Origin: an uncultured delta proteobacterium
GTDB lineage: Bacteria > Desulfobacterota > Desulfobacteria > Desulfobacterales > SpSt-501
Assembly: GCA_963791285.1 (NCBI GenBank)
Contig: CAWBSC010000023.1
Location: 399,767-463,766, forward strand
Direction: 5' to 3'
DNA: 64,000 nt
Below are positions 1-61,543 of the stretch, in pieces (the first letter of the stretch is position 1; each line of letters begins with the position of its first letter). The notes under the pieces were generated by a model that did no database searches, was not told the DNA's origin, and saw only the letters and a program-made list of their open reading frames with translations. Made by a program: the position numbers and the translations under genes.

Positions 1-1
1 G

Positions 2-1750: not shown

Positions 1751-1921
1751 AAGGACGCACGCGTCAACCGCGAACGCGCCCGCCGATAGATCCGCATCCT
1801 CCGCGCAGCGGCTCCATGCACCGGACGCACCGGTCACGCCGGCATTCTTCCAGAAGAATTTACCGTGTTCAAACGCGGGCAGAGCGGGATTGGGCGAAAC
1901 GCGGGTTACGGAGGATCGGAA

Positions 1922-3292: not shown

Positions 3293-3296
3293 GCCG

Positions 3297-5105
3297 TCAC
3301 CATGTCAGGCGCTGCTCAAGGTGCCCCAGGAGCTGAAGGGCTCTGGCGGATGTCGTGTGATGCGCCAGCAGATGGCGGTAACCGGCCGCGGCCACCTGCT
3401 CGGCCTCTTCGACGTGCGCACGGTAATACTGCAGCTGGTCCTCCAGCTCTGGCAGGTCATCAAAAAAAACTGCCGATTGTCCATCGATGAAATTGCTCGG
3501 AATACGGATCGGCGGATGTTCAGCCAGCAGCATGGCCCCATGCGCAGGAATTTCCCAATACCGAACGGTGTCAAACCCGGTTCCGAAAAACGAGAGCCCG
3601 ATTCGAGCCGAACGCAACCGCTCGGCGTACTCCGCCTGAGGGTAGCACGCTTGCAAGTGCCGGCCCAGCATGCGCTCGATCGCGGCCAGGTAAAGGGGAC
3701 GCAACCCCCAAACCGGCTTTCCCGCCCAGAACACGTCGAGGTTGCGTTGGATCGGTCCCCGCACCGGAATCAGGGTGTCGGGGTAGCCGAACGGCAACGG
3801 AATGGTTTTAGACCCGTAGTCTACTCCAGCGAGCATCTCCCGTTTGAACAGCACATCGATCGGCTTGCCGCCGATGTAGTTCGAAATCACATCGACGGGC
3901 GTGCAGCAGTTGTCCCACGTGTCGTAAACCACCAACGGCAGATCGCGGCCAGCCTCCATGATCCGCTGCACATCGGACATCCGCGTCATTTGCACCACAT
4001 CGGCATACAGAATCAGGTCAAAACGCCGGTCTCGGAGTTCCGATAGGATGGATACCAGAGGCACCGGTGACGACGCATGGTCGAAGACGCAAGGATAGTT
4101 GTGAGCGTTGTCCGCAGCACGGCCGTGAAGCATCGGCTTCCAGGGGTACTCCACAACGTTTTCTGAACCGATGGCCCGCACCAGAGCATCGAAAATAGTG
4201 TCCATCCCATAATCCGAATGATCATGGGTCAGAACGAGAATCCGCGGCGCCCTTCTGACCCCGCTCCACGTGACCGCATTCTCCATAGCCGACGGGCTGT
4301 CGCATGCCTGCGGCAATGCATCGAGATACCGTTGGCATTCAGGGTCGGGCGAGACATGAAGAACCGATCTCAACGTGCGCCGAGCCATGGCAGTATTGCC
4401 TATGTGCCGCCAGAACCCCGCCTCGCGGCAATACGCTGGATGGTGGTGCGGCAGCGCCGATGTGATCTGTGCGAACTCGCGCCGAGCTTTGAAATAAAGT
4501 TTGTGCAATGGCTGATCGGCCGGCAGTGCCTGCTGCCAGGCCAGATATAGCTTCTGTTTTTCGGCTGCCACATAAGCCAAGTTCTCGTCGGTGTGGAGCA
4601 GCTCGAACGGGATGTCCTCGAGGACCGCTATGGCATGTTGGAATTGTCCATCCCGTGCAAGCGCACCAGCATGCGCGGCGGGGTTGTAGGCGCAACGAAC
4701 CGCGACAACCCTTATAGCGGCAGCCTCTCCGGCCTCCGGTTGCAGGTGCACGGTTTTGAACCGCAACAGCCCATGCCGGTGCAGCAGCAGGTCCAATTCG
4801 CTCAGGAGGTCCCCTTCGGCGCCGTTCCGGGTGACAAAGCTTATCCTCCCGTTAGGGCCCAGGAACTGAAGCAAATAGGCCAAGTCTATGCGACGGTCGA
4901 CTCTGCCGGTTACGGGGTCGATCACCATGCAATCGAATTCGGCGTTACCCAACGCCGCGGAGCCGGCGGCCGGCATGCTTGGCAGGTACCAAACCCGGCC
5001 CCTCTGAGCGTATTGCTGCCTGCAGGCACCGGACGGGACGGCGCCGATATGCAAAATGCGGTCGATGAAAGGGGGGATCATTTCACCGCAGGCATTTGCC
5101 GTCAT
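3297..5105 (-). CDS. CgeB-like glycosyltransferase (Glyco_trans_1_2 type C-terminal domain) with N-terminal degenerate methyltransferase-like region
   Basis: 602-aa ORF. The C-terminus (GTGFDTVRYWEIPAHGAMLLAE...FFDDLPELEDQLQYYRAHVEEAEQVAAAGYRHLL) matches the pattern I recall for the CgeB/DUF3880 family. Confidence 0.7.
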   Translation of the reverse strand: MTANACGEMIPPFIDRILHIGAVPSGACRQQYAQRGRVWYLPSMPAAGSAALGNAEFDCMVIDPVTGRVDRRIDLAYLLQFLGPNGRISFVTRNGAEGDLLSELDLLLHRHGLLRFKTVHLQPEAGEAAAIRVVAVRCAYNPAAHAGALARDGQFQHAIAVLEDIPFELLHTDENLAYVAAEKQKLYLAWQQALPADQPLHKLYFKARREFAQITSALPHHHPAYCREAGFWRHIGNTAMARRTLRSVLHVSPDPECQRYLDALPQACDSPSAMENAVTWSGVRRAPRILVLTHDHSDYGMDTIFDALVRAIGSENVVEYPWKPMLHGRAADNAHNYPCVFDHASSPVPLVSILSELRDRRFDLILYADVVQMTRMSDVQRIMEAGRDLPLVVYDTWDNCCTPVDVISNYIGGKPIDVLFKREMLAGVDYGSKTIPLPFGYPDTLIPVRGPIQRNLDVFWAGKPVWGLRPLYLAAIERMLGRHLQACYPQAEYAERLRSARIGLSFFGTGFDTVRYWEIPAHGAMLLAEHPPIRIPSNFIDGQSAVFFDDLPELEDQLQYYRAHVEEAEQVAAAGYRHLLAHHTTSARALQLLGHLEQRLTW

Positions 5106-5151
5106 AATTTCCTGCCCTAAAGCGGGTCGTGGCGTACGGAGATCGCACGGA

Positions 5152-6582
5152 TCATGCGGCCTTGGAGGCGGCTGCCAATCGGTCCAGTTCCCGGCCGGCT
5201 TCGACGTTCCAGGGCTCGATTTCGAGCATGCGCTCGAAGAAGGTCCGCCCGTCCTCCGGTCGGCCGAGCGCCAGACAGAGCCTGCCCGTCGCGTGGAGGG
5301 TTTCCAGGTCCTCCGGGTAGGCGCTCAGGACGTCCACGTAGATCTTCAGGGCGTCTTCGTAGCGTCCGAACCCGACCCAGTAGCAGTCCGCCAGGTTCTT
5401 CTGAAACGTCAAGTTGGACGGTTCGAGGCGCGCGGCCTTCTCGTAACGCTCCAGGGCCTCCTGCCGGTCGCCGGCCTGGTAGGCGAGCACCCCCAGGTCG
5501 TTGTGGGCCAGCGCGAAGCCCGGGTGCGCGGCGACCATCTCGCGCAGCCGGTCCCGTCCGGCGCCCGTATCGCCGGCGGCGATCAGGCGCGCGGCGTCCT
5601 CATAGCTCGCCTGGGGTGAGGCGACGGCTGCGGCCGTATCGACCCGCGGCGCCCGGAGCTGGTTCAATGCGTCGTGGGCATCGGTGTTCCAGGGTTCGAG
5701 CTCCAGAATCCGTTCGTAGAACACCCGGGCGTCCTCACCCTGCCCTAATGCGGCGCAGACACGGGCCACTGCGGTGAGCGCTTCGATGTCCTGAGGGGAG
5801 TCCTCCAGCACACGGACATAGATCTTCAGGGCGTCCTCGGTGCGGCCCTGCTCGACCCAGTAGAAATCGGCGAGGTTCTTCTGGAATGTGCCGTTGCCCG
5901 GCTCCAGCCGGGCGGCCTGCTCGTAGTGCCGCAGCGCCCGGTCCTTGTCCCCCGCCTGGTAGCACATCACCCCGAGATCGTTGTGGGCCGCCGCGAATTC
6001 GGGATGCGCGGCAACCAGTTGCTCCAAGCGGGTTCGCGCCGCCGCCGTGTCGCCGCCCTGGACGAGGCGCTGCGCGTCGGCGTATAGCTCCTCCGCACCG
6101 CTCCGGCCGGCAGCCCCGCCCAGGATTCGCTGGATCTTCGCGAGGTTCTCGTTCGCTTCGGTGTTCCAGGGCTCGACGTCCAGCACCTTGCGATAGTGCA
6201 CGGCTGCTTCGGCGAAGCGCTGCAGGCTGACGTGAAGATGGGCCGCGGTCATCTGGATCGTCGTGTCGTTCGGCCGGATGGCCAGGATCCGGACGTACAG
6301 CGCGAGGGCGTCTTCGACACGCGAGAGCTCCACGTGGTAGTAATCGGCCAGGCTGGTCAGGAAGGTTGCGTCGCCGGGGTTTAGGTGGGCGGCGCGCTCG
6401 AAATGCCCCAGCGCCTTCTGCCCGTCCCCGGACCGGTAGTACAGCCCGCCGAGGTCGTGGTGCGCATCGGCGAAATCCGGGAAGGAACGCACCACGTTCC
6501 GCAGCGCCTGAAACGCGTCTTCGGGGCGAGCGGCCTGGAGCAGGGGCCGCATGTTCTCGTACATGTGTTCGATCGGCAGCAT
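5152..6582 (-). CDS. TPR-repeat protein built from three tandem ~160-aa modules
   Basis: ORF 5152..6687. The preferred start is ATG 6582, preceded by AGGAGG (revcomp of tcctaagggg region). Three colinear modules each end in ...EPWNTxA (HDLGGLYYRSGD..., HNDLGVMCYQAGD..., HNDLGVLAYQAGD...). Confidence 0.8.
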   Translation of the reverse strand: MLPIEHMYENMRPLLQAARPEDAFQALRNVVRSFPDFADAHHDLGGLYYRSGDGQKALGHFERAAHLNPGDATFLTSLADYYHVELSRVEDALALYVRILAIRPNDTTIQMTAAHLHVSLQRFAEAAVHYRKVLDVEPWNTEANENLAKIQRILGGAAGRSGAEELYADAQRLVQGGDTAAARTRLEQLVAAHPEFAAAHNDLGVMCYQAGDKDRALRHYEQAARLEPGNGTFQKNLADFYWVEQGRTEDALKIYVRVLEDSPQDIEALTAVARVCAALGQGEDARVFYERILELEPWNTDAHDALNQLRAPRVDTAAAVASPQASYEDAARLIAAGDTGAGRDRLREMVAAHPGFALAHNDLGVLAYQAGDRQEALERYEKAARLEPSNLTFQKNLADCYWVGFGRYEDALKIYVDVLSAYPEDLETLHATGRLCLALGRPEDGRTFFERMLEIEPWNVEAGRELDRLAAASKAA

Positions 6583-6679
6583 GTCTTGCCTCCTAAGGGG
6601 TTTGGCATCGCGCATACGGATGCGCGGGGAGTGGTAACGCTGGGACAGACTACGGATGCGCCTGCGGTGCATGGGAGAT

Positions 6680-7468
6680 TCATGCAAGATTCAGTCCCGC
6701 CATGCGGTTTGCGGGCTGGACATCGGGGATGCGGCGGAGGATTGCGCCGTCCCGTGCGGCCCGCCGATAGGCGGAGAGAATACGCGCGTCCTCGAGCGTC
6801 TTGAGGTCGCGGTGGCGGTGCTCGACGCTGTCGGGCCGGGACAGGTAGAGCCCGAGCGGCTCCCGGATGTGGTGGAATGAGTGGGTCTGGGAAATCCGCA
6901 GCCAGAATTCGAAATCGCCGGAAGAGACCAGGCTCTCGTCGAAGTATCCGTATTCCGCATGCACGCAGCGCCGCCACATGGGCTGGGGGCCGATGAAGCA
7001 GCCCTGCGTCAACAGCGTGTCGCGGTTCCAGTCGTGCCAGCTGAGGACCCGGGTCGGGGTGCAGCGGTCGAAGGTTTGGTTTTCGGCGACCGTTTCCACG
7101 ACATCCGCGTAGACCAGCGCCACGTCCTGCCGCAGCTCCAGCACCCGGCCCATGCGCTCGAACGCATTGGCCTTGTGGCGATCGTCGGTGTTGGCGTTGG
7201 TGAGGTACGTCCCCCGCGCCATGCGGATGGCCCGGTTCCAGGCGGCGTAGACCGTCTCCCGGCGCTCGGTGCGGGTGTAGCGGATGCTGGGGTAGCGTTC
7301 CTGCCAGCGGCGGACGATGGCCCCCTCGCCTTCCTCCGACGCACTGTCGACGACGATGATCTCGATCCGGTCGGCGATGGTCTGCGCTGCGAGATCGACC
7401 AGGCACCCCTCGATGAAGCGAGCCGAGTTGAACGTCGAGATGATGGCGGAGACGAGGGGGGGATTCAT
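6680..7468 (-). CDS. Family 2 glycosyltransferase
   Basis: 262-aa ORF. VSAIISTFNSARFIEGCL...IIVVDSASEEGE...NANTDDRH is a GT2 signature. There is a 4-nt ATGA overlap with the upstream gene. Confidence 0.85.
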   Translation of the reverse strand: MNPPLVSAIISTFNSARFIEGCLVDLAAQTIADRIEIIVVDSASEEGEGAIVRRWQERYPSIRYTRTERRETVYAAWNRAIRMARGTYLTNANTDDRHKANAFERMGRVLELRQDVALVYADVVETVAENQTFDRCTPTRVLSWHDWNRDTLLTQGCFIGPQPMWRRCVHAEYGYFDESLVSSGDFEFWLRISQTHSFHHIREPLGLYLSRPDSVEHRHRDLKTLEDARILSAYRRAARDGAILRRIPDVQPANRMAGLNLA

Positions 7469-10400
7469 GCTCGCGGCACTGGGTTCGCCGAAGGCGCGGC
7501 TCGGTCGGGTCGCGTTCCCGCGGGCGATGGGGCATGGGGGGAATCGCCCCGGAACAGCCGCTGCAGCGCCCGGGAAACTCTTCGGCCGTAGAGGGCCGGG
7601 TTCAGGAAGTCCGGGGTCAGGCTCATGCGCGCGCGAATCCGGCTGCGCAGCGCCTGCCGCAGCGATGCGTCGCGGCCGAGTCGCACGGCTAGCTGGACAT
7701 ATTCGTCTTCGCCGATCGCGACCATCTCCGGAACGCCCAGTTCCCGCAGCATGGCGGCCCCCTGAGCGAAACGCAGCGCGCCGCCGTCGGCGACCGCCAT
7801 GGGAATGTCGGCTCTCAGCGGATCAAGGAGAGAGGTGGCGCCGTTGTAAGGGACGGCGTCCAGATAGACGTCGGCCATCCGGTTGAGGGCGTCGATGCAT
7901 GCACGGTCCGGCATTGAGTCCAGGACGACCAGGCGCCGGGGGTCCACCCTTTTTTCGGAGAGCGCCCTCCGGTACATCCCGGTCATGGCGGCGCGGGGAT
8001 AGATGTCTCCCCACGCCGGACCGAAGGGGTAAAGCACTAAAGAGCTCCCCGGCGTCCGCTCCAGAACCGTCGCCCAAGTACGCATCAGCTCGGGCAAAAT
8101 CTTGAAACAGTTGGCCCCGGAGATGAACAACGTACCGTTGCCCGGGATGCCCAACTCCTCGCGCGACACGTCGATCCTCCGGGGCTCCGGCTGCTGCGTC
8201 AGGTCGAAACAGAGGCCCGATCCTTGGACGGTCAGCAGGGCTTCCGAGAACCCGGACTCTTCCGGGAGTCCGGCGGCGATCGACTCCCCCAGCAGGAAGA
8301 AGTCGACGTGGCGGGATCCCGACGAAACCGGACTGCAGAAATGGACCCCCTGGCGCCGTGCGATCCGGTGATGCGCCAGAATGACCTCGTGGGTGCATCC
8401 GGCCGTGATGTTGTTGCCGAAGAACAGAATATCCAGGTCGGCTTGCCGCATAAGCGCGATACTGGCCTTCAGGTCCCCCGGGAGAACGGTGAGCGAGTCG
8501 GCGTGCTGCCGCGCGTAGTGTTCCAGGGGATCGTGCGTGCGCCGCAGGACGAAGAGATGAACTTCAAACGCCTCCCGGTCGAGGCCGGTAAAGACGGGAA
8601 GCGTGGCAAACACCTCCGAGTGCGGCCGAATGGATCTCAGGTAGACGCCCAGGCGCAGCCGCTGCCGACGGTGCACCCGCGATGCGCAGGGAGCGTCGAC
8701 CGGGCTGCCCGCCCGCCGGAGCACGTACTCCATTATCCGGCCGCGCCGGGCATAGAACGGCCCGGGATCCCGATCGGAGAAAAACAGCTGCATGGGGTTG
8801 GCGGAGTTCAGGAACTCCGACGCCTTCCGGTACGACTCCGGGGATTGCGGATCGGCCTGGGTTTCAGCATGGACCTCTTCGGTGAGCCGCAGCAGATAGT
8901 CGCGGTAGGCGTCGACCTCGCCCGGCTTCTCGAAATACGACGGCCGCGCCAGCCGGTAGCGGAAGACGTCCTCGCGGAGCCAGTCGGGGACCGCGAACTT
9001 CAGGCCGTCGAGGCGGAGCGGCGACAGGTAAATCATGGCCGGCGGCAGGAGCCGCTGAACATGGGCCGCGGATGCCGCTTCGGCGAGCTCTTTCCGCAGA
9101 AGTTCGGCAAGGATCTGCTCCCGGGGCGACAAGGTTCGCGGCAGACTCAGCTGACTCAGGAGCTTGCGGGTCGCGTCGAGGACGCCGCCTAATCTTCCCG
9201 TGGCTATTCCGGTCAGGTCGGATTTGAGCCACACCCGGGCGAGAAACGCCCGCTGCCGTGCTCGGGCCTCGGTCCAGTCGTTGCCCCCGTCATGAGCCGC
9301 GCCGGGACGACCGGGAGCGGTCGACCCCGCAGAGGCGACGGACGCGCCCGCCGAGTCGGCCGGAGCAGCCGATTCGTCCCGATGGCCGTCTTCGGGCAGG
9401 GACGCCTTGAACACTTCGGCGTCGAGGAAGGCGCGGGTGAGGACGCTGTCGGGCATCGCGGCCATCGGGAACAGGCGGAGGTCGCGTCTGCCGGTGGGAT
9501 GGCTCGCCAGGCGTTCGTCGTAGACCGATCGGTATGCCGATAGGACGCGGTCCAGGTCGAATGTCGCCGTCGCGTGGCGCCGGGCCTCACGCGAGTAGGC
9601 CTCGCGGGCGTCCGGGTGCCGGATCAGAAATTCCAGGGACCGCAGCAGCCCCTGAATGTCCTCGTCTTCCACCAGGCATCCGTTCCGGCCGTCGAGCACC
9701 AGCTCCGGGATGCCGCCGATCCGGAACGACACGACCGGGACGCCGCAGGCGAGCGCCTCGATGACCACCAACGGGCAGTTGTCGGCCCTGGGCGTGTATA
9801 AAAAGACGTCCATCGCGTTCAACGCAGCGGCAACGTCCGGCTCGTTGTCGAGGTGCCCGGTGCTGACGACGCCCGGGACCTCAGGGGTCCGAGGCGCCCC
9901 GGCGTTTAGAAACACCAGACCGGGATGACTTCGTCGCATCTCCTGCAGGGTGCGTTGGAGGTGGTGCCCGCCTTTCCAGGCGTTGACCAGCGCCCCGCCG
10001 TGGGACAGGCAGCCGACGACGACTGCGGTGTCCGGGATGCCGAACCGGGCACGGGCCGCAGATCGCTCCGTCGGCTTGAAGACGTCGCAGTCGACCCCGT
10101 TGGCGACAAGCGTGACCGGGTGGTCGCGCAGGATGCTACGCTCCACTTTCTGCTGCAGCCAGCGGGACGGAACGACGATGTGCAGCTTCGAATGCGCGTA
10201 GATCAGTTTCTTGTGCACCCACAGCTCCGCGGTCCGGTCCGTCCAGACACCGGGCTGCGTGTCCGGATAGGGGCACCCGCCGCACCCCGACAGCCATTTC
10301 TCGCAGTCGAATGCGTGGGCGCAGTGCCCGGTGATGGCCTGCATGTCGTGCAGCGTCCAGACCGTCGGTTTCTGGTGCGACAGGACGGAGAGCGAGAACG

Positions 10401-10743
10401 GGTTGAAATAGCCGCCGTGCAGATTGTGGCAGTGGAGGACGTCGGCGGAGCGGACGGCCGGGTGGCGATGGAGCCCGTGACTGCCCTGGAACTCGTAATC
10501 CAGCTCCCCGCGGAGAAAACAGATCATCTCATCCAGCGGGTCCGCCCCGGCGTCGAAGCCCTCGACCCAATCCCATGCGCTCGTTCGGGTGCCGACGAGC
10601 ATCCGGGACGCGTGCCCCTGACGGCGCTGGCCGGTGCACAATCTTTCGGCGACCTTGGCGGCCCCGCCTGCAACGTCGTGTGTGTTGATGTGGAGCACGC
10701 CGGGCGGCCGGTCAACGGATGGGATGCGATTCAGCGGGTTCAA
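7465..10743 (-). CDS. Two-domain glycosyltransferase: N-terminal GT4 (GT-B) fused to a C-terminal OGT/SPINDLY-like (GT41) catalytic region without TPRs
   Basis: The ORF track gives 7465..11502, but the first ~250 codons overlap the upstream gene and are R/G/A/P-rich. The probable start is TTG 10743 (G-rich SD, overlaps the upstream TGA) or GTG 10698 (VLHINTHDVAGGAAKV, a typical GT4 N-terminus). GT4 motif: IEALACGVPVVS. The C-half (RLRLGVYLRSIRPHSEVF...ADVYLDAVPYNGATSLLDPL...) resembles GT41. Confidence 0.7.
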   Translation of the reverse strand: MNPLNRIPSVDRPPGVLHINTHDVAGGAAKVAERLCTGQRRQGHASRMLVGTRTSAWDWVEGFDAGADPLDEMICFLRGELDYEFQGSHGLHRHPAVRSADVLHCHNLHGGYFNPFSLSVLSHQKPTVWTLHDMQAITGHCAHAFDCEKWLSGCGGCPYPDTQPGVWTDRTAELWVHKKLIYAHSKLHIVVPSRWLQQKVERSILRDHPVTLVANGVDCDVFKPTERSAARARFGIPDTAVVVGCLSHGGALVNAWKGGHHLQRTLQEMRRSHPGLVFLNAGAPRTPEVPGVVSTGHLDNEPDVAAALNAMDVFLYTPRADNCPLVVIEALACGVPVVSFRIGGIPELVLDGRNGCLVEDEDIQGLLRSLEFLIRHPDAREAYSREARRHATATFDLDRVLSAYRSVYDERLASHPTGRRDLRLFPMAAMPDSVLTRAFLDAEVFKASLPEDGHRDESAAPADSAGASVASAGSTAPGRPGAAHDGGNDWTEARARQRAFLARVWLKSDLTGIATGRLGGVLDATRKLLSQLSLPRTLSPREQILAELLRKELAEAASAAHVQRLLPPAMIYLSPLRLDGLKFAVPDWLREDVFRYRLARPSYFEKPGEVDAYRDYLLRLTEEVHAETQADPQSPESYRKASEFLNSANPMQLFFSDRDPGPFYARRGRIMEYVLRRAGSPVDAPCASRVHRRQRLRLGVYLRSIRPHSEVFATLPVFTGLDREAFEVHLFVLRRTHDPLEHYARQHADSLTVLPGDLKASIALMRQADLDILFFGNNITAGCTHEVILAHHRIARRQGVHFCSPVSSGSRHVDFFLLGESIAAGLPEESGFSEALLTVQGSGLCFDLTQQPEPRRIDVSREELGIPGNGTLFISGANCFKILPELMRTWATVLERTPGSSLVLYPFGPAWGDIYPRAAMTGMYRRALSEKRVDPRRLVVLDSMPDRACIDALNRMADVYLDAVPYNGATSLLDPLRADIPMAVADGGALRFAQGAAMLRELGVPEMVAIGEDEYVQLAVRLGRDASLRQALRSRIRARMSLTPDFLNPALYGRRVSRALQRLFRGDSPHAPSPAGTRPDRAAPSANPVPRA

Positions 10744-13436
10744 TTGGCCTGCCCCCCCTGTGAATCCGCTGCCCGGCGGGCCGTCGGGGGGGCGGTGGGC
10801 CGGAGCCCGAACGTCTGCGTCCCTCCCGTCGCTGCCTGCTCCCCGCCGAGCCGCTCGCGCCGCTGCAGGAGCGCGAGCGATTCGAAGCGTTCGGCCCCAT
10901 TGGGCTCCGCCAGCCAGGTCGCGAATTGCTCCGCGTCCCAATTCCGCACGAGTTTGCGCGGCAGCGCAAAAAGGGCGGCCGGCAGTCTCAGGCTCCCCTG
11001 GATGTTGGCGATTCCGGCCCGATACCCTTCCCGGGCAACCATCTGCGCCGTCTCGACCGTGAAATCCGAGGCACTCCCGAATGGATAGGAGAAGAAGGCC
11101 ACCGCATCCCCGGTCATGCCTTCGATCTGTTTGCGGGACGCGACGATTTCCTCCAGTTGCTCGTTCGGGGGCAGCGTCGACAACCGCGCATGGGTGACCG
11201 AGTGCGCACCGATTTCGATCAGCGGCGAAGCGCTTAGCATGCCCAGCTGCCTGGCGCTCAACACCGGGTGTGCGACGGGCGTATCCGTCTGCACCTGAGC
11301 CCATTGCCTCAGCTGGGCCAGTGCCGCCTCGATGAGACGCGGAGGCATGGATCGCAGCAGGGCGCAGACACGATCGTGCGCCTGCAGGCGTGCGGGCCGG
11401 CTGCGCAGGTCGAAGTTCATTGCCTCCCGGGTCAGGCCGTCCACACGCAAATCGGAAGGCAGCCGGTCCTGGCGCAGCAGGATCTGCTCCACCTCGTCCC
11501 ACCAGAAGGCGTGCGTGGCGCCGACCATGCCGGAGGTGACGAAAACGGTCGCGGGGAGCCCCAGGGCTTCGAGGACGGGCAGCGCCCGGGTCAGGTTGTC
11601 CGCATACCCGTCGTCGAACGTTACGGCGACGGTGTTGCCGGGCAGCCTGCCCCGGCGCATGTCGTCCAGCAGATCTCCAAGCGGGAGCACCCGGAACCGA
11701 GACCGGAGGTGACCCATGTGGCTCTCGAAATGGTGCGGTGCGACCGAGAGAAGATGGGCATCGGACGGGTCGTCACACACCCGGTGATAGAGGAGAATCA
11801 TTGGAGGCAGTGCGGTTCCCGACGGGGTGACCGCCCGCCCGATCCCGGACGCACGCGGCTCCCCTGCCCCGGTCTTCACCGCCTTAGCGGTGACCAGGAC
11901 CTGATAATCCGGGTCGGAGGCGTCGAGCACGGCGGCAGGGATTTCCTGCATGCTGAGACCTTCCAGAAAGGCCTTGGCCACAGCCAGATTGCCGTGCGGC
12001 GCAACGTGGATCTCGTCGCCGGGCATCACCTCGGAGAGCAGCGTTTTCAATGCCCTGTCCGTGAACCGCCAGTACTCCCCCCACCGGTCCATGTCATAGC
12101 GGGATATCTGGCTGATCCCCGATCCGGTCGCCAGGAGGACGCCGCCGGGCTTGAGGGCGTCGACCGCGTGGCGCACGGCCGCCTTGACGTCGCAGATCAT
12201 CTGGAGCGTCTGGACCAGAATGATGCAGTCGTAGACGCCGCGCGGTATGTTTTCACCCGTGGCCAGGTCGCCCACGATGGTGGCCTGGGGGTCGTCCACC
12301 ACGCTGAGCACGTCGGCCCGCTCCACGTCGCGACCGTATTTTCGCGTGTACCCGCTGTCGCCGATTTCGAGCACCCGGCCGCGGATGAGATCCCGGTTGG
12401 CGTGCAGGAATTTTTCGATGTAGTAGCGGTCGATCGGGAGCCCGCGGTCGAGCCCGAACACCCGGCTGCGCGGCGTCGTACGGCAGTCGAAATCGGCGCC
12501 GTGTTTCGAGGGGCTCGCAACTCCCCCTGCCCGACCCGAGGCGGCCGCTGCCGTCGCCGGAGCGTCGGGCCTGCCGGCCCGGCCGACCAGCGACGGGTGC
12601 CCGTAGATACGCTGCCACAAGCGAGGGCATTCGGCGTCTTCCACCGCGGGCGGCCAGCAATCCGGTGGAGCGGGGGCCGGCTGCAAGGGCGGATTGGTGA
12701 ACCACTCCTCTTTCTTGGTGTTGGTGGCATCCTCCCCGTAGCCGATGTGCTCGACCATGCTCCTGGGCGGCCGCAGGCACAGGCCGCGCCGCAGGATGTG
12801 CCAGTAAAGGAACCGGACGGCCCAGACGTTCTTCTGCAGCTCCTGTTTGGCGGTCGCCGGCAGGTCCGCGCCGTACCGGAAGACATCGATGCCTCCGCGG
12901 TGGCACTGCTGCAGCAGGCTCCACGCGTCCTGCGTCATTCCCGTCCAGGACCGGGCCCATGCGCCCCATGCCAGCGACTCGGCGCGGCCGTCGAAGTAGG
13001 GCCGGTCCTGAACGCCGGCCGGCGTGACGCGCGGGTGGGTCCAGCCGGTGACGCTCATGACGCGCGGGTCGTCCCGGTAGTGCCGCAGGGCACTGCAGAG
13101 ATAGTCGTAGGTCCCCGGGACGCACACGAGGTCGTCTTCGAAGACGACGGCGGCCTCGTGCCGCTGAAAGATCTCGGTCACGCCGGTCAGGATGGAGCGC
13201 CCGAGGCCCAGGTTCTCCGATCGCTCGACCGACTTCACCTCGCACCAGTCGACGGACCGCAGAACGGACCGCACCGCTTCGACCAGCGGGCGGTCCGCGT
13301 CGGACCGGGCCCCGTCGCTGAAAGCGTAGATGAGGGGGACGTGGTTCTTTTCGAGACAGGACAGCGTCCGCCGCACGTGCTGCGGCCGGTTGTAGGCGAA
13401 AAGGACGACGGGGATTTCCGCTCGATTCATGCTCAT
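10740..13436 (-). CDS. Tri-domain protein: GT-A type glycosyltransferase / class I SAM methyltransferase / polysaccharide deacetylase (NodB-type)
   Basis: 898-aa ORF. N-terminus: IPVVLFAYNRPQHVRRTL...VVFEDDLV. Middle: RVLEIGDSGYTRKYG...LKPGGVLLAT. C-terminus: VAVTFDDGYADN...GAHSVTHARLS. Confidence 0.8.
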   Translation of the reverse strand: MSMNRAEIPVVLFAYNRPQHVRRTLSCLEKNHVPLIYAFSDGARSDADRPLVEAVRSVLRSVDWCEVKSVERSENLGLGRSILTGVTEIFQRHEAAVVFEDDLVCVPGTYDYLCSALRHYRDDPRVMSVTGWTHPRVTPAGVQDRPYFDGRAESLAWGAWARSWTGMTQDAWSLLQQCHRGGIDVFRYGADLPATAKQELQKNVWAVRFLYWHILRRGLCLRPPRSMVEHIGYGEDATNTKKEEWFTNPPLQPAPAPPDCWPPAVEDAECPRLWQRIYGHPSLVGRAGRPDAPATAAAASGRAGGVASPSKHGADFDCRTTPRSRVFGLDRGLPIDRYYIEKFLHANRDLIRGRVLEIGDSGYTRKYGRDVERADVLSVVDDPQATIVGDLATGENIPRGVYDCIILVQTLQMICDVKAAVRHAVDALKPGGVLLATGSGISQISRYDMDRWGEYWRFTDRALKTLLSEVMPGDEIHVAPHGNLAVAKAFLEGLSMQEIPAAVLDASDPDYQVLVTAKAVKTGAGEPRASGIGRAVTPSGTALPPMILLYHRVCDDPSDAHLLSVAPHHFESHMGHLRSRFRVLPLGDLLDDMRRGRLPGNTVAVTFDDGYADNLTRALPVLEALGLPATVFVTSGMVGATHAFWWDEVEQILLRQDRLPSDLRVDGLTREAMNFDLRSRPARLQAHDRVCALLRSMPPRLIEAALAQLRQWAQVQTDTPVAHPVLSARQLGMLSASPLIEIGAHSVTHARLSTLPPNEQLEEIVASRKQIEGMTGDAVAFFSYPFGSASDFTVETAQMVAREGYRAGIANIQGSLRLPAALFALPRKLVRNWDAEQFATWLAEPNGAERFESLALLQRRERLGGEQAATGGTQTFGLRPTAPPTARRAADSQGGQAN

Positions 13437-13470
13437 GCACCTTCATCTTTCGTTACATCGACGTGGCGCA

Positions 13471-14586
13471 TTATGATGCACTCGCCATGGTGGCGTAGTG
13501 GTCTGGACATGCCTGGTAATACGGCTTTATTGCGGAGGAGACGGCGTGCGGATCGGAACGGCGGAGCAGTGAATTCGCCGATTCAAATTGGCTGTGCGCT
13601 GAGATCTCAGGAAAAAAATACCGACAGACGTCCACGATTTCACTGAGCTCCATGCACCGATCCCGGTAAACCCACGAAGGCAGATGAGCGTCAACGGATA
13701 GTTGCTTTATTTGATTCAAAACATCGAATGCCTCATTCAGCATGAGGGATCCGAATCTGTGCCTAAAGCAGTTCCGGGTATCCACGAACAAGATGTCTTT
13801 TGCCTCAGTGGTAAGGGCGGAATCGCGGACAACCTTTATGTGCTCATAGGCCAACATCGTCCAAGGGGCGAGTGCCTTGGACCTGGATTTGACGAACCAG
13901 CTATATTGTCGCCGAGTCTGCTCTTGCGCGGTCTCGCACGGCCGGTTCAGTCGGCGAAAAAAAAGCGGAGTGTCTACCTGGGCAATTGAACCGATCAAAC
14001 TGAGTTTGGCAAATATGGTGTGATCGGAACCGATGGTCGTGTAATAATCAAGCGCTTCTTTTAAGATGGATGTGCGGTGTAGACCATAAAACATATTCCC
14101 CCAGTTAAACTCCCAGATGGTTTTGCTGAATCTCCGACACGGGTCCAACCCCTTGGTGTCGAAAGCATCCGCCACCAACTCGACCGGCCGGTCGTCCTCA
14201 TCAATCAGTATGGTTCGTGGATACGCGACGACAACGGACCCTTCCTGTTGGAGGATGTTCAGCAGAGTGGGCATAAACCGCGGGTGGTAGATATCATGGT
14301 CCGCCGCGCACATGATGAACTCGCCTGAACACAGATCGACGGCCTTAATACAGTTGCGTGCGGGTCCCATGTTCATCGTGTTGCGATAATACGTTATGCG
14401 ATTATCGCGCCGGGCATAGTCCCGGCATATCTCGCTGGATCCGTCTTCTGAGGCGTTGTCGGATATAATGAGCTCAATGTCCGGATGCTCCTGAGCCAGA
14501 AGGGATTCGATCGATTTGGCTATAAATGGAGCGGAGTTGAAAACGGTCATTGAAATGGATACCAGCGGTTTTTTTCCAGAGGCCAT
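13471..14586 (-). CDS. Family 2 glycosyltransferase in a low-GC cassette
   Basis: 371-aa ORF. VSISMTVFNSAPFIAKSIESLL...LIISDNASEDGS...AADHDIY. Local GC is about 40-50% against >=65% in the flanks (hand counts of 60-nt blocks at 13681 and 14041). Confidence 0.85.
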   Translation of the reverse strand: MASGKKPLVSISMTVFNSAPFIAKSIESLLAQEHPDIELIISDNASEDGSSEICRDYARRDNRITYYRNTMNMGPARNCIKAVDLCSGEFIMCAADHDIYHPRFMPTLLNILQQEGSVVVAYPRTILIDEDDRPVELVADAFDTKGLDPCRRFSKTIWEFNWGNMFYGLHRTSILKEALDYYTTIGSDHTIFAKLSLIGSIAQVDTPLFFRRLNRPCETAQEQTRRQYSWFVKSRSKALAPWTMLAYEHIKVVRDSALTTEAKDILFVDTRNCFRHRFGSLMLNEAFDVLNQIKQLSVDAHLPSWVYRDRCMELSEIVDVCRYFFPEISAHSQFESANSLLRRSDPHAVSSAIKPYYQACPDHYATMASAS

Positions 14587-14696
14587 CCTACCTCCCAGAG
14601 ACCTATTGCGTGCCGTCTATAACCACCATCGCCAAATTGGGGTGGCACATGGGTGAGGGGGACCCAACAGACCAGTAGTCCGCCTCGCCCCAACCG

Positions 14697-15509
14697 TCAC
14701 ACCCGTTTCAGGAAGCCGTCCGGGGCAGCGGTGATGGCAAGTTTGTGCTCAATCTGTTTGTCGATTTCCAGTTTCAGCGCCGCACCGTCGACGCCGGCAA
14801 GCGGTTTGGCCTGAAGCTGCCGCAAAAACTCGAACACCGCCGTTTTGGGGTTGTTGCCTTTGCCCCAGGGACGGTCGGTGACGAATCCCTCCGGCAGGTC
14901 CTCAACCCCCGTATCCCAAACTACGCAGTAACTGCTTTTCGAGACCAGGGGGGCGTAGGCGTGGAGTTCTGCAAGTACATGGCTGTGCGTGTGGTTGGAA
15001 TCGAGAAAAACCATGACGGTCTTGAATTCAGCGGCTCGCCCATGCACACGATGGACCACGGCCGGGTCTATCGATGAGCCCTCGATCATCTCAATCATGT
15101 GGCGCATCGGATGCGCATCGATTGCGTTGCGGTTGTGCGCGCGGATTTCGATGTCGATGCCCAGCACCCGTCGCCGCGACGCCGCGGGTAGGATCGTCGT
15201 GCCGGCGACGACGGCCTCGCAGTAGTCGAGCAAAGCCAACATCGAGGCGCTCATCACCAGGGAGCCGCCGTGAGCGATACCGGTCTCGATGACCAGATCG
15301 GGGCGAATGCGCCATATCAGCTCCTGAATGGCATATGCATCCTGCGGAACTTGGATGATGGGGCGGCCCAGCCAGGAAAAATTGTAGGCATAATGGTGCT
15401 TGATGGCCGCCTGGTTCCAGTCGTTGGACAAGGCGATAAACGACTTGTCCTCGCCGATCCCGCGGACGTTACGAGCCACTTCCTCCGAGAACAAAGCGAT
15501 TGGATCCAT
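14697..15509 (-). CDS. CmcI / cephalosporin-hydroxylase-family methyltransferase (rhamnosyl O-methyltransferase-like)
   Basis: 270-aa ORF. WLGRPIIQVPQDAYAIQELIWRIRPDLVIETGIAHGGSLV is characteristic of the CmcI family. Confidence 0.8.
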   Translation of the reverse strand: MDPIALFSEEVARNVRGIGEDKSFIALSNDWNQAAIKHHYAYNFSWLGRPIIQVPQDAYAIQELIWRIRPDLVIETGIAHGGSLVMSASMLALLDYCEAVVAGTTILPAASRRRVLGIDIEIRAHNRNAIDAHPMRHMIEMIEGSSIDPAVVHRVHGRAAEFKTVMVFLDSNHTHSHVLAELHAYAPLVSKSSYCVVWDTGVEDLPEGFVTDRPWGKGNNPKTAVFEFLRQLQAKPLAGVDGAALKLEIDKQIEHKLAITAAPDGFLKRV

Positions 15510-15523
15510 CGGTCGCCGGATTC

Positions 15524-17260
15524 CTATTTAAACGTAGTGGGCATGCGGAACGACACCGCCAAATCCTGCCAGCGCGGGTCTGCTGCAACGATGGCCTCAT
15601 AGCGGGACAGGTGTCGTGCGAAGACGTGGGGATCCACCCCCAGTGCCTGCTGCGCCTGAGCGAGGAAATAAAGGGCAAACGGGTGATCGGGATGCCGGTC
15701 CAGCACCTCCTCGAAGCACCGCTGGGCCGTGACGTAATCGCCGGTCCGCATCCGGTAATTGTCGACGAAGTTTGCCTCCAGGTTCAGGCGGTAGATCAGA
15801 TCGGTGATCCGCTGGGGATCTATGCCGGGTGCGCGGATAATGTACTCGGTCATATCCACCCGACCGATCCCGATGTACTTGCTGTCGATCCAGCCCTTTT
15901 CAAAGCAGGTCCTGAACAACTCCGAGCCGCGCAGCGGCGTAGCGTAATTGAAAAAACTCCAATCAATCCCGGCGTCGTGAATGAAGCGCCGGGTCGCCTC
16001 GCGATCTTCCTCGGTCTCGCCGGGGAATCCGATGATGAAAAAGGATTGCACGAAAATGTCGTTGCGGCGCAGGCAACCAATGACATCCTTAGCCTTGTCG
16101 AGCCTCACCGGCTTCTTGATGATGTTCTTGAGCACATGGTCGGACCCGGATTCGATCGCCAGAATCACCGTGTCGACCCCGCCCTGCTTCATCAGACAGG
16201 CCAATTCCTCGTCGATGAACGTCAGCGTGATGCCGTTCGGCATCTCGACCCGAATGCGGAATTCGGCGAGACGCCGAAACATCTCCTTGGCGCGCGGGAC
16301 ATCAATCAGCAACTGGTCGTCGTAGATCGTCAACACATTCATGCCATAGTGTTCGACCAGGTGGCGAACGTGCTCGACGATCGCGTCGACGTCGGCGAAC
16401 CTCATACTCCTGCCATGCAATGACGGCTCAGCGCAAAACACGCAATGGAAGGGGCAGCCGCGCGAGGTGACGATGAAGAACTGTCGGGTATTGCGATCAT
16501 TCCGGTAGCTGGCAAACGGCGAAAACGCCTCCTTCATGCTGTAGCGCGTGTTCTCCACCAGGTCGTAATCGAGTCGGATCGCCTCGTTGAGGTTTGCCGT
16601 CACCACGGATTTCGGCACCCGATGGGCGGCAAGCGACTCGCGTGTAACCCAAGGATCCTTTTCCAGTTCGCGCCGGGGGTCGTCCGACTCGACCAGCGAC
16701 AGCATCGCTTGCTCGCCTTCCGAGTAGCATAGCGCGTCCAGATTCGGCTGATCGGCCAGGATTTCCTCCCACGCGGTCGTCACTGCTGGACCCCCCATCA
16801 GGGTCAGGATGCGCGGGTCGAAGCGCTTGACCGTTTCCGCCAGGTAGGCAACATGAGTGTAGGACGTGTCGTAGCTCATCGAAAAGCCGATCACCTCGGG
16901 GCCGGTTTCGGCCAGCACTCGTTTCAGCTCTGCGATGCGCTGCCCCTCGGTGGCGTACAGATTGAGATCGAGGATTTTCACCTCGGGCGTCGGCCGCGCC
17001 TTGGCCTTAATGTACGAGGCCATGGCCAGCACACCATAGGGGAACGCCAGGAACGAGCGAACCGCCTTGCCGGGCACGGGTGCGCCAGCCTGGAATACCA
17101 GGTACGGCAACACGCACAATATCACCTTGGCCGGAACCTGACGCTTGACCTGATCCGAGACCGGAGCCCAGGGCTGAGCCAAAGACGGATTCGCCGAGCC
17201 GCCTCGAGGTAAGTACGCGAGTTCGCTGCCTCTCGGCACGATTGCCATAGCGTCGCCCAT
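15524..17260 (-). CDS. B12-binding-domain radical SAM enzyme (class B, putative methyltransferase), paralog 1
   Basis: 578-aa ORF. N-terminal cobalamin-binding-like region, radical SAM motif TSRGCPFHCVFCAEP, helical TPR-like C-terminus. Confidence 0.85.
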   Translation of the reverse strand: MGDAMAIVPRGSELAYLPRGGSANPSLAQPWAPVSDQVKRQVPAKVILCVLPYLVFQAGAPVPGKAVRSFLAFPYGVLAMASYIKAKARPTPEVKILDLNLYATEGQRIAELKRVLAETGPEVIGFSMSYDTSYTHVAYLAETVKRFDPRILTLMGGPAVTTAWEEILADQPNLDALCYSEGEQAMLSLVESDDPRRELEKDPWVTRESLAAHRVPKSVVTANLNEAIRLDYDLVENTRYSMKEAFSPFASYRNDRNTRQFFIVTSRGCPFHCVFCAEPSLHGRSMRFADVDAIVEHVRHLVEHYGMNVLTIYDDQLLIDVPRAKEMFRRLAEFRIRVEMPNGITLTFIDEELACLMKQGGVDTVILAIESGSDHVLKNIIKKPVRLDKAKDVIGCLRRNDIFVQSFFIIGFPGETEEDREATRRFIHDAGIDWSFFNYATPLRGSELFRTCFEKGWIDSKYIGIGRVDMTEYIIRAPGIDPQRITDLIYRLNLEANFVDNYRMRTGDYVTAQRCFEEVLDRHPDHPFALYFLAQAQQALGVDPHVFARHLSRYEAIVAADPRWQDLAVSFRMPTTFK

Positions 17261-17283
17261 GTTCCCGCACCCTCCACGGTGCT

Positions 17284-18471: not shown

Positions 18472-18483
18472 GGCCGTCTCCCC

Positions 18484-20136: not shown

Positions 20137-20161
20137 GCTGCACTCCTGTCCCCGCGCCGGA

Positions 20162-24027: not shown

Positions 24028-24033
24028 GCCGGG

Positions 24034-24810: not shown

Positions 24811-24870
24811 GTGATCTCCTGCTGGTCCTGTCGGTGCTTCAGGATATTCTGCGGCCTTGGTCCGCGCGGT

Positions 24871-26512: not shown

Positions 26513-26835
26513 CTGAATGATCGATTTTCCGGGAGGTGTGGGATGCCAGGGCATGAGGTCGCGAGCCGGGAATATGGCTCCGCCCCTTCGATTACATCCC
26601 AAGGCGGATTTTCGGGCGTGAACTTTAACTTCCGGTTCAACTTAGCAACATATATGCCATGGACTTCCGCAAAAATTTTTATGTTTATTTTCAGAGTATT
26701 GAACGTGGTTTCACGAGGATAACGTGATCGGAAGTCAAGTCGCTGACGTTCAATCTTCAACCACATGCGCTGCAAGTTTGACGGTCCAAAATCGGGCCGG
26801 CGCCTAAACCTTTCCCCGGCACGGGCGATATTCAT

Positions 26836-61518: not shown

Positions 61519-61543
61519 GCGGACGACGGCGCACAAGGCGGTA

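Follow-up and report, generated by a model that had tools for sequence, protein, structure and literature searches.

A GT4–GT41 fusion glycosyltransferase of an uncultured Desulfobacterota bacterium and its TPR-less GT41 subfamily

Family GT41 is the paradigm of cytoplasmic protein glycosylation, and the choice of substrate is usually ascribed to its TPRs. A stretch of 64,000 nucleotides from an uncultured Desulfobacterota bacterium, analysed here as a whole and called the window, encodes a protein in which a GT4 domain is joined to a GT41-like catalytic region. The locus raises the question of where this gene begins, what its GT41 part is, and how an enzyme of this kind might recognize and modify its acceptor. 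A preliminary description had pictured the protein as an OGT stripped of its TPR superhelix, with substrate recognition provided in trans by one of the stand-alone TPR proteins encoded nearby.

The gene and its start

The ORF list of the window contains a frame of 1345 codons at 7465..11502 on the minus strand. The preliminary description considered this frame inflated by about 250 codons that run over the upstream gene, and the analysis agrees. The long ORF and the upstream gene overlap by 763 nt in different frames. Upstream of position 10750, GC3 is 0.44-0.59 in the frame of the long ORF versus 0.79-0.89 in that of the upstream gene, and downstream of 10750 it climbs to 0.80-0.90 in the frame of the long ORF. 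Alanine, glycine, arginine and proline account for 61% of the 253-codon extension versus 36% of the remaining protein, and the extension has no Pfam match. The 1092-aa product of a start at TTG 10743 is identical to a public protein (P0001). A real protein of 1345 aa is ruled out by GC3, by composition, by the N-termini of homologues and by this public gene model.

Two start codons had been suggested, TTG 10743 and GTG 10698, and the first is the better candidate. The TTG (10743-10741) shares bases with the TGA stop codon of the upstream gene (10742-10740) in a TTGA overlap, and a Shine-Dalgarno-like G-rich run lies about 8 nt 5' of it. The sequence 5' of GTG 10698 contains no such signal. Initiation at the GTG would also lose the TTGA coupling and a (V/L)DR motif, which reads VDR in the window protein and P0003 and LDR in P0002. 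This start is thus less likely. Judged from these sequence features, the gene begins at TTG 10743, not at 11502. The practical lesson of the present case is that shadow ORFs enlarge gene models in DNA with a GC content of 65-70%. The features of the gene and its immediate neighbours are collected in Table 1.

Table 1. Coordinates of the predicted features in the window
Feature	Position	Strand	Details
Upstream translationally coupled gene, GT-A-like / methyltransferase / polysaccharide deacetylase	10740..13436	-	898 aa; Pfam
Spurious 253-codon 5' extension, shadow frame on the upstream gene's 3' end	10744..11502	-	
Predicted true CDS of the GT4 / all-alpha / GT41 bifunctional glycosyltransferase	7465..10743	-	1092 aa + stop
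GT4 domain, GT-B fold	9508..10698	-	residues ~16-412; PF13439, PF13692, PF00534 and PF13524 matches
Cys/His cluster GHCAHAFDCEKWLSGCGGC within the GT4 N-lobe	10273..10329	-	motif GHCxH..C..W..CxxC
Low-complexity A/S/G/P-rich spacer between modules	9283..9507	-	residues 413-487; not conserved, raised GC2
Family-specific all-alpha domain, ~10 helices	8695..9282	-	residues 488-683; AF2 pLDDT 91.1
GT41 (OGT/SPY-like) GT-B core	7552..8670	-	residues ~692-1064; N-lobe ~696-847, C-lobe ~872-1064
Pro/Ala-rich disordered C-terminal tail	7468..7551	-	residues 1065-1092; pLDDT <50, not conserved
Downstream GT2 gene	6680..7468	-	start overlaps the GT4-GT41 stop (ATGA)
Stand-alone TPR protein	5152..6687	-	511 aa; Pfam; conserved neighbour in closest relatives

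A distinct TPR-less GT41 subfamily

From the N-terminus to the C-terminus, the protein comprises a GT4 domain, a low-complexity spacer of about 75 aa, an all-alpha domain of about 195 aa and a GT41 GT-B core. The GT4 domain had been recognized earlier, and the profile searches bear it out. PF13439 (N-lobe) as well as PF00534 and PF13692 (C-lobe) exceed their cut-offs, so that both lobes are covered, and the EX7E-type motif is read from the sequence as a DX7E variant (D321..E329; E-x7-E in P0003). By these profiles and this motif, the module can be assigned to CAZy GT4. Its matches in the PDB are BshA, PimB and MshA, and it is 45-50% identical to more than 100 multidomain glycosyltransferases. 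The NCBIfam matches of the module are weak and are to polysaccharide glycosyltransferases. The Cys/His cluster of its N-lobe, the motif of which is present in 77 of 120 GT4 homologues, is a possible metal site.

The OGT/SPINDLY-like nature of the C-terminal region is likewise upheld. In the Glyco_transf_41 search that the preliminary description had proposed, PF13844 scored 64.9 bits (cut-off 25), and the match covers only profile positions 357-528, which correspond to the C-lobe. A phmmer search of the PDB retrieved TtOGT and XcOGT (E 2e-16), and a family profile retrieved OGT and SPY (E 1e-31). The AF2 model (pLDDT 87.3, pTM 0.87) matched SPY, TtOGT, hOGT and XcOGT in Foldseek with a probability of 1.0, E values of 6e-23 to 1e-20 and TM scores of 0.58-0.62. 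The profile match and the superimposable GT-B fold of the model confirm, as far as sequence and prediction reach, that the core belongs to CAZy GT41.

The region between the two catalytic parts had been described as a linker of about 300 aa. The spacer fits that description; the linker reading is unsupported for the remainder, because most of the region is a conserved, folded all-alpha domain. This domain makes up two thirds of the supposed linker and is part of the GT41 module. It carries the conserved motifs P-x-W-L..DY, GE..Y and ANFIPLYF. A profile search with the domain collected 809 representatives, and in 120 of the 136 top representatives it lies directly N-terminal to the catalytic core. 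The all-alpha domains of seven members gave no Pfam match at E<=10, to TPRs or otherwise, and Foldseek with the domain alone gave no hit with an E value under 0.07 and listed no TPR in the top 50. A degenerate TPR is thus unsupported by Pfam or Foldseek. The whole protein has no Pfam TPR match either, and the earlier observation that it lacks TPRs holds at the level of both profile and fold. In cyanobacterial relatives, the N-terminal half of the domain (~115 residues) is also present as three to four tandem C-terminal copies.

Together, the all-alpha domain and the GT41 core (~600 aa) constitute a distinct TPR-less GT41 subfamily. At 50% identity it comprises about 800 clusters, most of them from Oscillatoriales cyanobacteria and Desulfobacterota, and the nearest relatives are Desulfobacterota MAGs. 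Members score above 300 bits versus about 165 bits for canonical TPR-OGTs. They stand alone or are fused to GT4, GT2 or methyltransferase domains. These fusions recur, and the module is also found inside giant proteins of 1000-3300 aa together with such domains. Since the subfamily is separate and TPR-less by default, the protein is not an OGT that was stripped of its TPRs. A literature search for a characterized TPR-less GT41 of the OGT clade, in systems for either polysaccharides or flagellin, yielded genomic surveys only.

The conservation of catalytic residues was judged on an alignment of 21 diverse members, which come from different phyla and share 32-48% overall identity. In the FISGAN-CF-K segment, the Lys (equivalent to hOGT K842) and the Asn (equivalent to XcOGT N385 and hOGT Q839) are invariant in the 21 sequences, as is the C-lobe motif D-x-Y-L-D...P..G.T-S..D. 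The roles of hOGT K842 and Q839 and of XcOGT N385 in the donor site have been described (PMC11329713). By the alignment alone, the column of the essential His (hOGT H558, XcOGT H218, ApHMW1C H277) is occupied by R706 in the window protein and varies across the family. His708, two residues further on, occurs in the window protein only, and the column of hOGT H562 holds a Glu (E710) that is invariant. The equivalent of hOGT H920 is Ala, and the uridine-side K898 and H901 are apparently not kept, according to an unconfirmed reading of the profile alignment. The loss of the H558 and H920 equivalents would be expected if the GT41 module were a catalytically dead scaffold and GT4 alone were active. 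This is very improbable, because members of different phyla, at 32-48% overall identity, all keep the donor-phosphate Lys and Asn and the C-lobe motif, and stand-alone members are the only glycosyltransferase in minimal cassettes.

The island and the candidate acceptor

The genes around the fusion encode CDP-6-deoxyhexose synthesis, O- and C-methyltransferases, TPR proteins and TPR-glycosyltransferase fusions. The sugar genes RfbF, RfbG and RmlC exceed their equivalog cut-offs. None of the 19 listed genes in 167..28074 encodes a plausible membrane protein (0-1 weak hydrophobic segment each). The P0002 and P0003 loci have the same GT-A-like/methyltransferase/deacetylase gene immediately upstream, and an orthologous GT2 gene follows the GT41 gene in the near-identical island L083. 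The possibility that a neighbouring protein of 602 aa (3297-5105) duplicates the module was rejected (hhalign probability 1.7%). No flagellin, pilin or other obvious acceptor was found among the window ORFs scanned; the island continues past the left end of the window.

Related loci give some indication of the acceptor. The GT41 gene of one relative (L084) adjoins Flagellin_N, FlgK and FlgE genes. It is the sole flagellar-adjacent locus of 87; around the remaining 86, tblastn detected neither flagellin nor FlgK. Six of the 87 loci (Microcoleus, Pleurocapsa and four Nostoc/Nostocales) have a type IV pilin gene no more than 10 kb away. A minimal cassette (L086) consists of four genes, for a C-methyltransferase, a reductase, FkbM and the GT41 protein, which is its only glycosyltransferase; no TPR gene is nearby. 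Between the window protein and its counterpart in L083, identity is 70-80% over the C-lobe, drops to 55% for the N-lobe and is 22-39% for the all-alpha domain.

The reading that we favour, and to which we give about an even chance, is cytoplasmic protein O-glycosylation by a soluble bifunctional GT4 and all-alpha/GT41 enzyme, a fused primer and elongator. The enzyme probably helps to decorate a surface protein with methylated deoxy-sugars. In this enzyme, the flexible spacer tethers the GT4 module to the all-alpha/GT41 module, in which the all-alpha domain packs on the GT41 core. In the proposed mechanism, the enzyme would act in the cytoplasm, within a large protein-glycosylation island that lacks membrane and export components. 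The GT41 module would move a sugar onto Ser/Thr residues of a secreted filament or surface protein, for example flagellin or pilin. The all-alpha domain and the GT41 N-lobe may set the choice of acceptor, and the GT4 module would then attach a further sugar; which module primes and which elongates is a guess. The soluble-only island, the flagellar neighbours in L084, the six pilin loci, the L086 cassette, the GT41-methyltransferase fusions of enterobacterial flagellin glycosylation islands and the acceptor-side divergence from L083 all count for protein glycosylation. Against it count the lack of an acceptor gene among the scanned window ORFs, the low number of flagellar and pilin loci, the polysaccharide-deacetylase domain of the upstream gene and the lack of conservation of the H558 equivalent. 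A fuller version, in which the all-alpha domain is a new acceptor-recognition module replacing TPRs and the lineage O-glycosylates flagellins and type IV pilins with methylated 6-deoxyhexoses, using non-UDP donors, His-independent catalysis through the invariant Glu and TPR adaptors in some clades, is quite doubtful when its parts are taken jointly.

The TPR genes of the island bear on the split OGT of the preliminary description. Orthologues of the 511-aa TPR protein (48-97% aa identity) lie directly downstream of the GT41 gene or one gene from it in L002, L012, L082 and L083. P0003 and L003 carry a similar block (42% identity over 323 aa) in cis, located between their GT4 domain and the module; this is a link of the Rosetta-stone type, and in P0003 TPR repeats occupy the position of the spacer. 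FlmG binds flagellin through its TPR domain, and its GT domain has no activity by itself (PMC7591256). These observations would suit a GT41 module that has no acceptor-binding domain of its own and relies in trans on the 511-aa protein or on other TPR proteins of the island. Such a split enzyme is nevertheless doubtful. At the position of the OGT TPRs, the module carries a conserved, folded all-alpha domain of its own, most members have no fused TPR, and minimal cassettes such as L086 do without a neighbouring one. TPR genes were found at only 27 of the 87 loci in a crude scan, and many neighbouring TPRs are fused to GT2, GT9 or GT61 domains of their own and may serve those enzymes. Under the favoured protein O-glycosylation, the neighbouring TPR proteins would possibly be adaptors and not intrinsic to the subfamily.

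Several glycosyltransferases and methyltransferases in one protein are also typical of polysaccharide polymerases. The enzyme could accordingly be a polysaccharide or oligosaccharide synthase, in which both modules extend a glycan chain on a lipid carrier or primer. The product would be of the O-antigen, EPS or S-layer-glycan type, made in the ABC-transporter-dependent style, and the GT41 fold would have been recruited for a sugar acceptor. The giant multidomain proteins, the upstream deacetylase domain, the NCBIfam matches of GT4 and the absence of the canonical catalytic His are consistent with such a synthase. We regard it as unlikely, because no phosphoglycosyl transferase, flippase, polymerase or ABC transporter was found in the 28-kb island, in the syntenic L002 locus or in the Microcoleus locus L018, although these components could sit elsewhere in the genome. 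A TM-rich ORF of the Microcoleus-type loci was considered as Wzm, but the single one checked is BrkB/YihY. In addition, some relatives adjoin flagellin or pilin genes, and to our knowledge every characterized GT41 acts on proteins.

Relation to known systems

The window protein resembles the OGT/SPINDLY enzymes (hOGT, Arabidopsis SPY, XcOGT and TtOGT) in its GT-B core, which superimposes on theirs (Foldseek E~1e-22), and in the residues corresponding to Lys K842, Asn/Gln N385/Q839 and the C-lobe pattern LD..P.NG.T(T/S)..D. In contrast to these enzymes, it has no contiguous TPR superhelix but an all-alpha fold without a structural match, its H558 and H920 equivalents are not conserved and replaced by Ala, respectively, and its GT41 module is fused to GT4. 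The sugar genes of the island make CDP-6-deoxyhexoses and not UDP-GlcNAc.

The HMW1C/NGT enzymes represent a plan of cytoplasmic protein glycosyltransferase (PMC11329713) that is similar to the subfamily in size (~600 aa), in the order of an all-alpha domain and a GT-B core, and in the absence of TPRs. Foldseek aligned AaNGT over 532 columns with an rmsd of 6.0. However, the sequence link is much weaker than that to OGT/SPY (E 3e-6, over only ~80 C-lobe residues), the all-alpha domain alone did not retrieve the NGT domain in Foldseek, and the catalytic His of ApHMW1C (H277) is absent from the window protein. These comparisons do not place the protein in the HMW1C/NGT clade, for which a homologous AAD and HMW1C as the closest relative would be expected.

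FlmG of Caulobacter and the enterobacterial GT41 fusions are soluble cytoplasmic O-glycosyltransferases with separable recognition and GT parts, and their islands also contain sugar-synthesis genes and genes for FkbM/AdoMet methyltransferases (PMC7591256, PMC4875605). In the enterobacterial flagellin glycosylation islands, GT41-methyltransferase fusions occur together with FkbM (PMC4875605). FlmG differs from the window protein in carrying its TPRs in cis and in the use of pseudaminic acid, and no flagellin gene was seen in the window ORFs scanned. Bifunctional and multidomain glycosyltransferases include dGT1 (streptococcal SRRP glycosylation), WsaE and WbdA (O-antigen polymerases). Like the window protein, they combine at least two GT modules, often with methyltransferase domains, in one polypeptide that adds successive sugars. 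We know of none among them that pairs GT4 with a GT41-type module.

The subfamily represents a sizeable GT41 lineage that has an unannotated helical domain at the position of the TPRs and does without the canonical catalytic His. If it acts on proteins, it would provide a second solution to acceptor recognition in the GT41 fold. In that case, the fusion with GT4 would be a compact primer-plus-elongator enzyme, which may be of use in glycoengineering.

Gene model and domain order

The ORF listing of the window gives a long ORF of 1345 codons that overlaps the 898-codon ORF upstream of it by 763 nt in a different frame. The GC content of the window is 57-73%, so that third-position GC (GC3) distinguishes coding frames from shadow frames. 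From 11502 to about 10750, GC3 is 0.44-0.59 in the frame of the long ORF versus 0.79-0.89 in the frame of the upstream gene, and below 10750 the long-ORF frame climbs to 0.80-0.90. Ala, Gly, Arg and Pro make up 61% of the 253-codon extension versus 36% of the remaining protein, and a Pfam domain search found no match in the extension. The public protein P0001 (NCBI, ENA), encoded on a contig of 701 kb, is the exact 1092-aa product of a start at TTG 10743. This TTG (10743-10741) overlaps the stop TGA of the upstream gene (10742-10740), and a Shine-Dalgarno-like G-rich run lies about 8 nt 5' of it. The preliminary description was thus correct in calling the ORF inflated and in proposing TTG 10743. 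Its other candidate, GTG 10698, has no comparable Shine-Dalgarno signal and would lose a three-residue motif, (V/L)DR, which reads VDR in the window protein and its public relative P0003 and LDR in the relative P0002. At the other end, the stop of the focal gene shares nucleotides with the ATG of the GT2 gene that follows (ATGA, 7468-7465). With the TTGA at 10740-10743, this arrangement makes three consecutive genes (methyltransferase-deacetylase, GT4-GT41, GT2) look translationally coupled within an operon.

Features of the focal protein and of the window (residue numbers refer to the 1092-aa protein)
Feature	Window position	Strand	Residues	Remarks
Long ORF	7465-11502	-		
Upstream 898-aa protein	10740-13436	-		GNT-I-like GT-A N-terminus (weak match), class I methyltransferase, polysaccharide-deacetylase
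GT4 module			~16-412	PF13439, PF13692, PF00534, PF13524
Cys/His cluster in GT4 module	10273-10329	-	139-157	GHCAHAFDCEKWLSGCGGC
Spacer			413-487	A/S/G/P-rich, not conserved
All-alpha domain			488-683	Conserved across phyla and in stand-alone relatives
GT41 core			~692-1064	PF13844, 64.9 bits, C-lobe part of profile only
Glycosylation island	167-28074			
B12-binding radical-SAM enzyme	15524-17260	-		C-terminal TPR
B12-binding radical-SAM enzyme	18484-20181	-		
CDP-type sugar-nucleotide genes, RmlC-type 3,5-epimerase, SDR	22520-26073	-		
ORF with strong coding signal	28880-29941	-		GC3 0.90; no Pfam or NCBIfam match
AMP-binding enzyme, first ORF	51578-52855	+		ACAS_N, AMP-binding positions 2-310
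AMP-binding enzyme, second ORF	52866-53612	+		AMP-binding 317-378, AMP-binding_C
ORF with strong coding signal	59967-61544	+		No Pfam match; open frame 60004-61518 (+), covering most of it, GC3 0.88

The GT4 domain named in the preliminary description is borne out by its Pfam matches and by PDB sequence matches to BshA, PimB and MshA. More than 100 multidomain glycosyltransferases are 45-50% identical to it. It has D321-x7-E329 where EX7E is usual. The pattern GHCxH..C..W..CxxC of its Cys/His cluster recurs in 77 of 120 GT4 homologues, pointing to a putative structural metal site; we know of no description of this cluster. In P0003, genuine TPR repeats are inserted at the position of the spacer. 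A conserved folded domain follows the spacer, so the supposed ~300-aa linker consists of a genuine domain preceded by a short spacer.

The all-alpha domain and the GT41 core

The all-alpha domain carries the motifs P-x-W-L..DY, GE..Y and ANFIPLYF and one invariant Arg. Modeled alone from 40 sequences, it is predicted to form about ten helices (pLDDT 91.1). A PDB fold search with this domain gave no match below E 0.07; the weak matches were 14-3-3, ARM/HEAT and designed repeat proteins (TM 0.2-0.4), and the top 50 included no TPR protein, OGT TPR or NGT all-alpha domain. Pfam detected no TPR in the domain from seven family members, even at E<=10. Among 1.84 billion representatives, 809 proteins matched its profile at E<=1e-3, 258 of them at E<=1e-30. 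A family-type catalytic core directly follows it in 120 of the top 136, the exceptions being mostly fragments ending at or just past the domain, or proteins with only tandem copies of its N-terminal ~115 residues. Three or four such copies form a ~430-aa C-terminal extension, without any Pfam match, in cyanobacterial giants (P0259-P0264 and similar; 11798-13111 in locus L018). The N-terminal half of the domain therefore behaves as an autonomous repeat unit.

The expected GT41 domain was found with the Glyco_transf_41 model (PF13844), and phmmer against the PDB aligned residues 685-1040 to TtOGT and XcOGT (E 2e-16). A profile built from six relatives matched DmOGT, hOGT, TtOGT and SPY at E~1e-31 and XcOGT at E~1e-25, and the HMW1C/NGT clade at only 3e-6. 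An AlphaFold2 model of residues 488-1092, the module of all-alpha domain and core, reached pLDDT 87.3 and pTM 0.87 with a 23-sequence alignment. Foldseek matched it to SPY, TtOGT, hOGT and XcOGT in the PDB (E 6e-23 to 1e-20) and to AaNGT (E 5e-18), whose 6.0 Å rmsd is the lowest in the list.

With one genome scanned per GTDB species, 239 relatives of the module were identified. Most of the best 80 come from Oscillatoriales and Nostocales cyanobacteria (32-37% identity); Desulfobacterota MAGs (45-48%) are also among them. The proteins at these loci have 600-3300 aa, with the module typically behind GT4, GT2 or methyltransferase domains. In a profile search of 5.8 billion proteins, more than 110 members exceed 300 bits, whereas the canonical TPR-OGTs, separated from them by a gap, score ~165 bits. 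A stand-alone form of ~600-630 aa, with PF13844 as its sole annotated domain, is common; in other members the module is joined to methyltransferases, GT2, GT4, FkbM or, rarely, TPRs, and the public proteins P0206 and P0210 share the GT4 fusion of the focal protein. No model in Pfam or NCBIfam names the lineage. The module forms a distinct branch of GT41 that has an N-terminal domain of its own; it is not, as first proposed, an OGT that lost its TPRs. The focal protein is a new architecture (GT4 plus all-alpha/GT41) within this recognizable, uncharacterized lineage.

Active-site equivalences were taken from a profile alignment to hOGT and a 21-sequence family alignment. K842 of hOGT corresponds to an invariant Lys, and Q839 (XcOGT N385) to an invariant Asn in the motif FISGAN..K. 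The hOGT segment D-x-x-L-D-T...N-G-H920-T921-T922..D925 becomes the largely invariant D-V-Y-L-D-A..P.N-G-A-T-S..D, with Ala in place of H920. By alignment, the donor-binding half is strongly constrained, and this speaks against a dead enzyme. Roles have been described for N385 and for the catalytic His, the latter reported to be crucial for activity (PMC11329713). Characterized GT41s have this His (hOGT H558 = XcOGT H218 = ApHMW1C H277), whereas the aligned residue of the focal protein is R706, in a column that varies across the family; a defining catalytic feature of characterized GT41s thus appears to be missing. H562 of hOGT corresponds to E710, an invariant Glu. Two residues past R706, H708 is a His in the focal protein only.

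The island and its relatives

The island contains TPR-GT9, GT2-TPR, a 602-aa GT-like protein, a TPR protein, GT2, the focal gene with the GT-A/methyltransferase/deacetylase gene upstream, another GT2, a CmcI-type O-methyltransferase, two B12-radical-SAM enzymes, FkbM, GT4, a SPASM radical-SAM protein, SDR, RmlC, glucose-1-phosphate cytidylyltransferase and CDP-glucose 4,6-dehydratase. The last three pass equivalog cut-offs. Together with the SDR, these genes indicate that the donors are probably CDP-6-deoxyhexoses rather than UDP-GlcNAc. None of the 19 listed island genes encodes a plausible membrane protein (0 or 1 weak hydrophobic segment each), and the island has no phosphoglycosyl transferase, flippase, polymerase or ABC exporter. 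The upstream 898-aa protein lacks a signal peptide and a TM segment, and the P0002 and P0003 loci have its counterpart directly before their GT41 gene. The best NCBIfam matches of the TPR-bearing B12-radical-SAM enzyme are P-methyltransferase families (Sden_1168, PhpK), far under cut-off; the pair suggests that the glycan is C- or P-methylated in an unusual way. Housekeeping genes lie to the right of the island. Elsewhere in the window, an acetyl-CoA-synthetase-like AMP-binding enzyme is split over two adjacent ORFs, either a frameshifted pseudogene or an assembly indel error.

The layout is kept in relatives. The related locus L002 has the order GT-GT41, TPR, 601-aa protein, GT2-TPR, then TPR-GT9 on the opposite strand, and its variable side carries a different GT set and a GDP-mannose dehydratase. 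In the metagenomic contig L083 (3337-10138 versus window 1-8471), the TPR/GT2 core is 85-91% identical in nucleotides, and the TPR protein, called there as two ORFs, is 91-97% identical in amino acids. A GT9 gene and then a stand-alone GT41 replace the methyltransferase-deacetylase and GT4-GT41 genes. Identity between the GT41 genes is highest over the C-lobe (70-80%), lower over the N-lobe (~55%) and lowest over the all-alpha domain (22-39%). In GT-B enzymes, the parts corresponding to the last two normally bind the acceptor, and these parts thus differ between otherwise near-identical islands. Such decay within one gene suggests that recombination or module swapping has acted on a hypervariable glycosylation island.

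Possible target and proposed role of TPR proteins

Three gene contexts point to protein as the target. At locus L084, C-methyltransferase, reductase, FkbM, GT41, TPR and FkbM genes directly adjoin Flagellin_N, FlgK and FlgE. In Microcoleus vaginatus (L085, 10001-18736), a type IV pilin gene lies between two GT41 family members and is also flanked by FkbM-TPR and methyltransferase genes. Type IV prepilin genes (motif GFTLIELLVV) occur within 10 kb in six loci (L085, L044, L050, L073, L076, L078), from Microcoleus, Pleurocapsa and four Nostoc/Nostocales. A four-gene cassette of Pseudolabrys (L086; sugar C-methyltransferase, reductase, FkbM, GT41) lies amid housekeeping genes with the GT41 enzyme as its only GT. 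To our knowledge, every characterized GT41 acts on proteins. According to published surveys, the islands for flagellin glycosylation in enterobacteria contain GT41 (COG3914) enzymes, which are mostly methyltransferase-fused and lie alongside FkbM and rhamnose genes (PMC4875605), and Synechococcus pilin glycosylation reportedly requires a GT41 Ogt (PMC9306852). Against a protein target, flagellar genes adjoin the GT41 gene in only 1 of 87 loci, no acceptor gene was seen in the window, and polysaccharide synthesis, too, typically involves multidomain GT/methyltransferase proteins and a deacetylase domain. Synthesis of a glycan only is a reading that we consider improbable. Weighing these contexts and surveys against the contrary points, we regard cytoplasmic protein O-glycosylation as evenly balanced between true and false. 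The GT41 module would attach the first sugar to a protein in the cytoplasm, and the fused GT4 would elongate from that sugar.

A separately encoded TPR protein might serve the GT41 module in trans, as the preliminary description proposed. Orthologues of the 511-aa TPR protein of the island (5152-6687, -) lie directly after the GT41 gene or one gene off in L002, L012, L082 and L083, at 48-97% amino acid identity, and P0003 and locus L003 have a similar block (42% identity over 323 aa) on the same polypeptide, between their GT4 part and the module. In the Caulobacter TPR-GT FlmG, the TPR domain binds flagellin and the GT domain is inactive alone (PMC7591256). This support is real but circumstantial. 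As a general mechanism, however, the proposal faces a family that has an N-terminal domain of its own and whose members mostly lack TPRs, fused or adjacent; many nearby TPRs belong to other GTs (GT2, GT9, GT61). We regard it as somewhat doubtful. The focal protein would gain in interest should its all-alpha domain turn out to be a module that recognizes the acceptor, or should the active site, lacking the His, work by a different mechanism.
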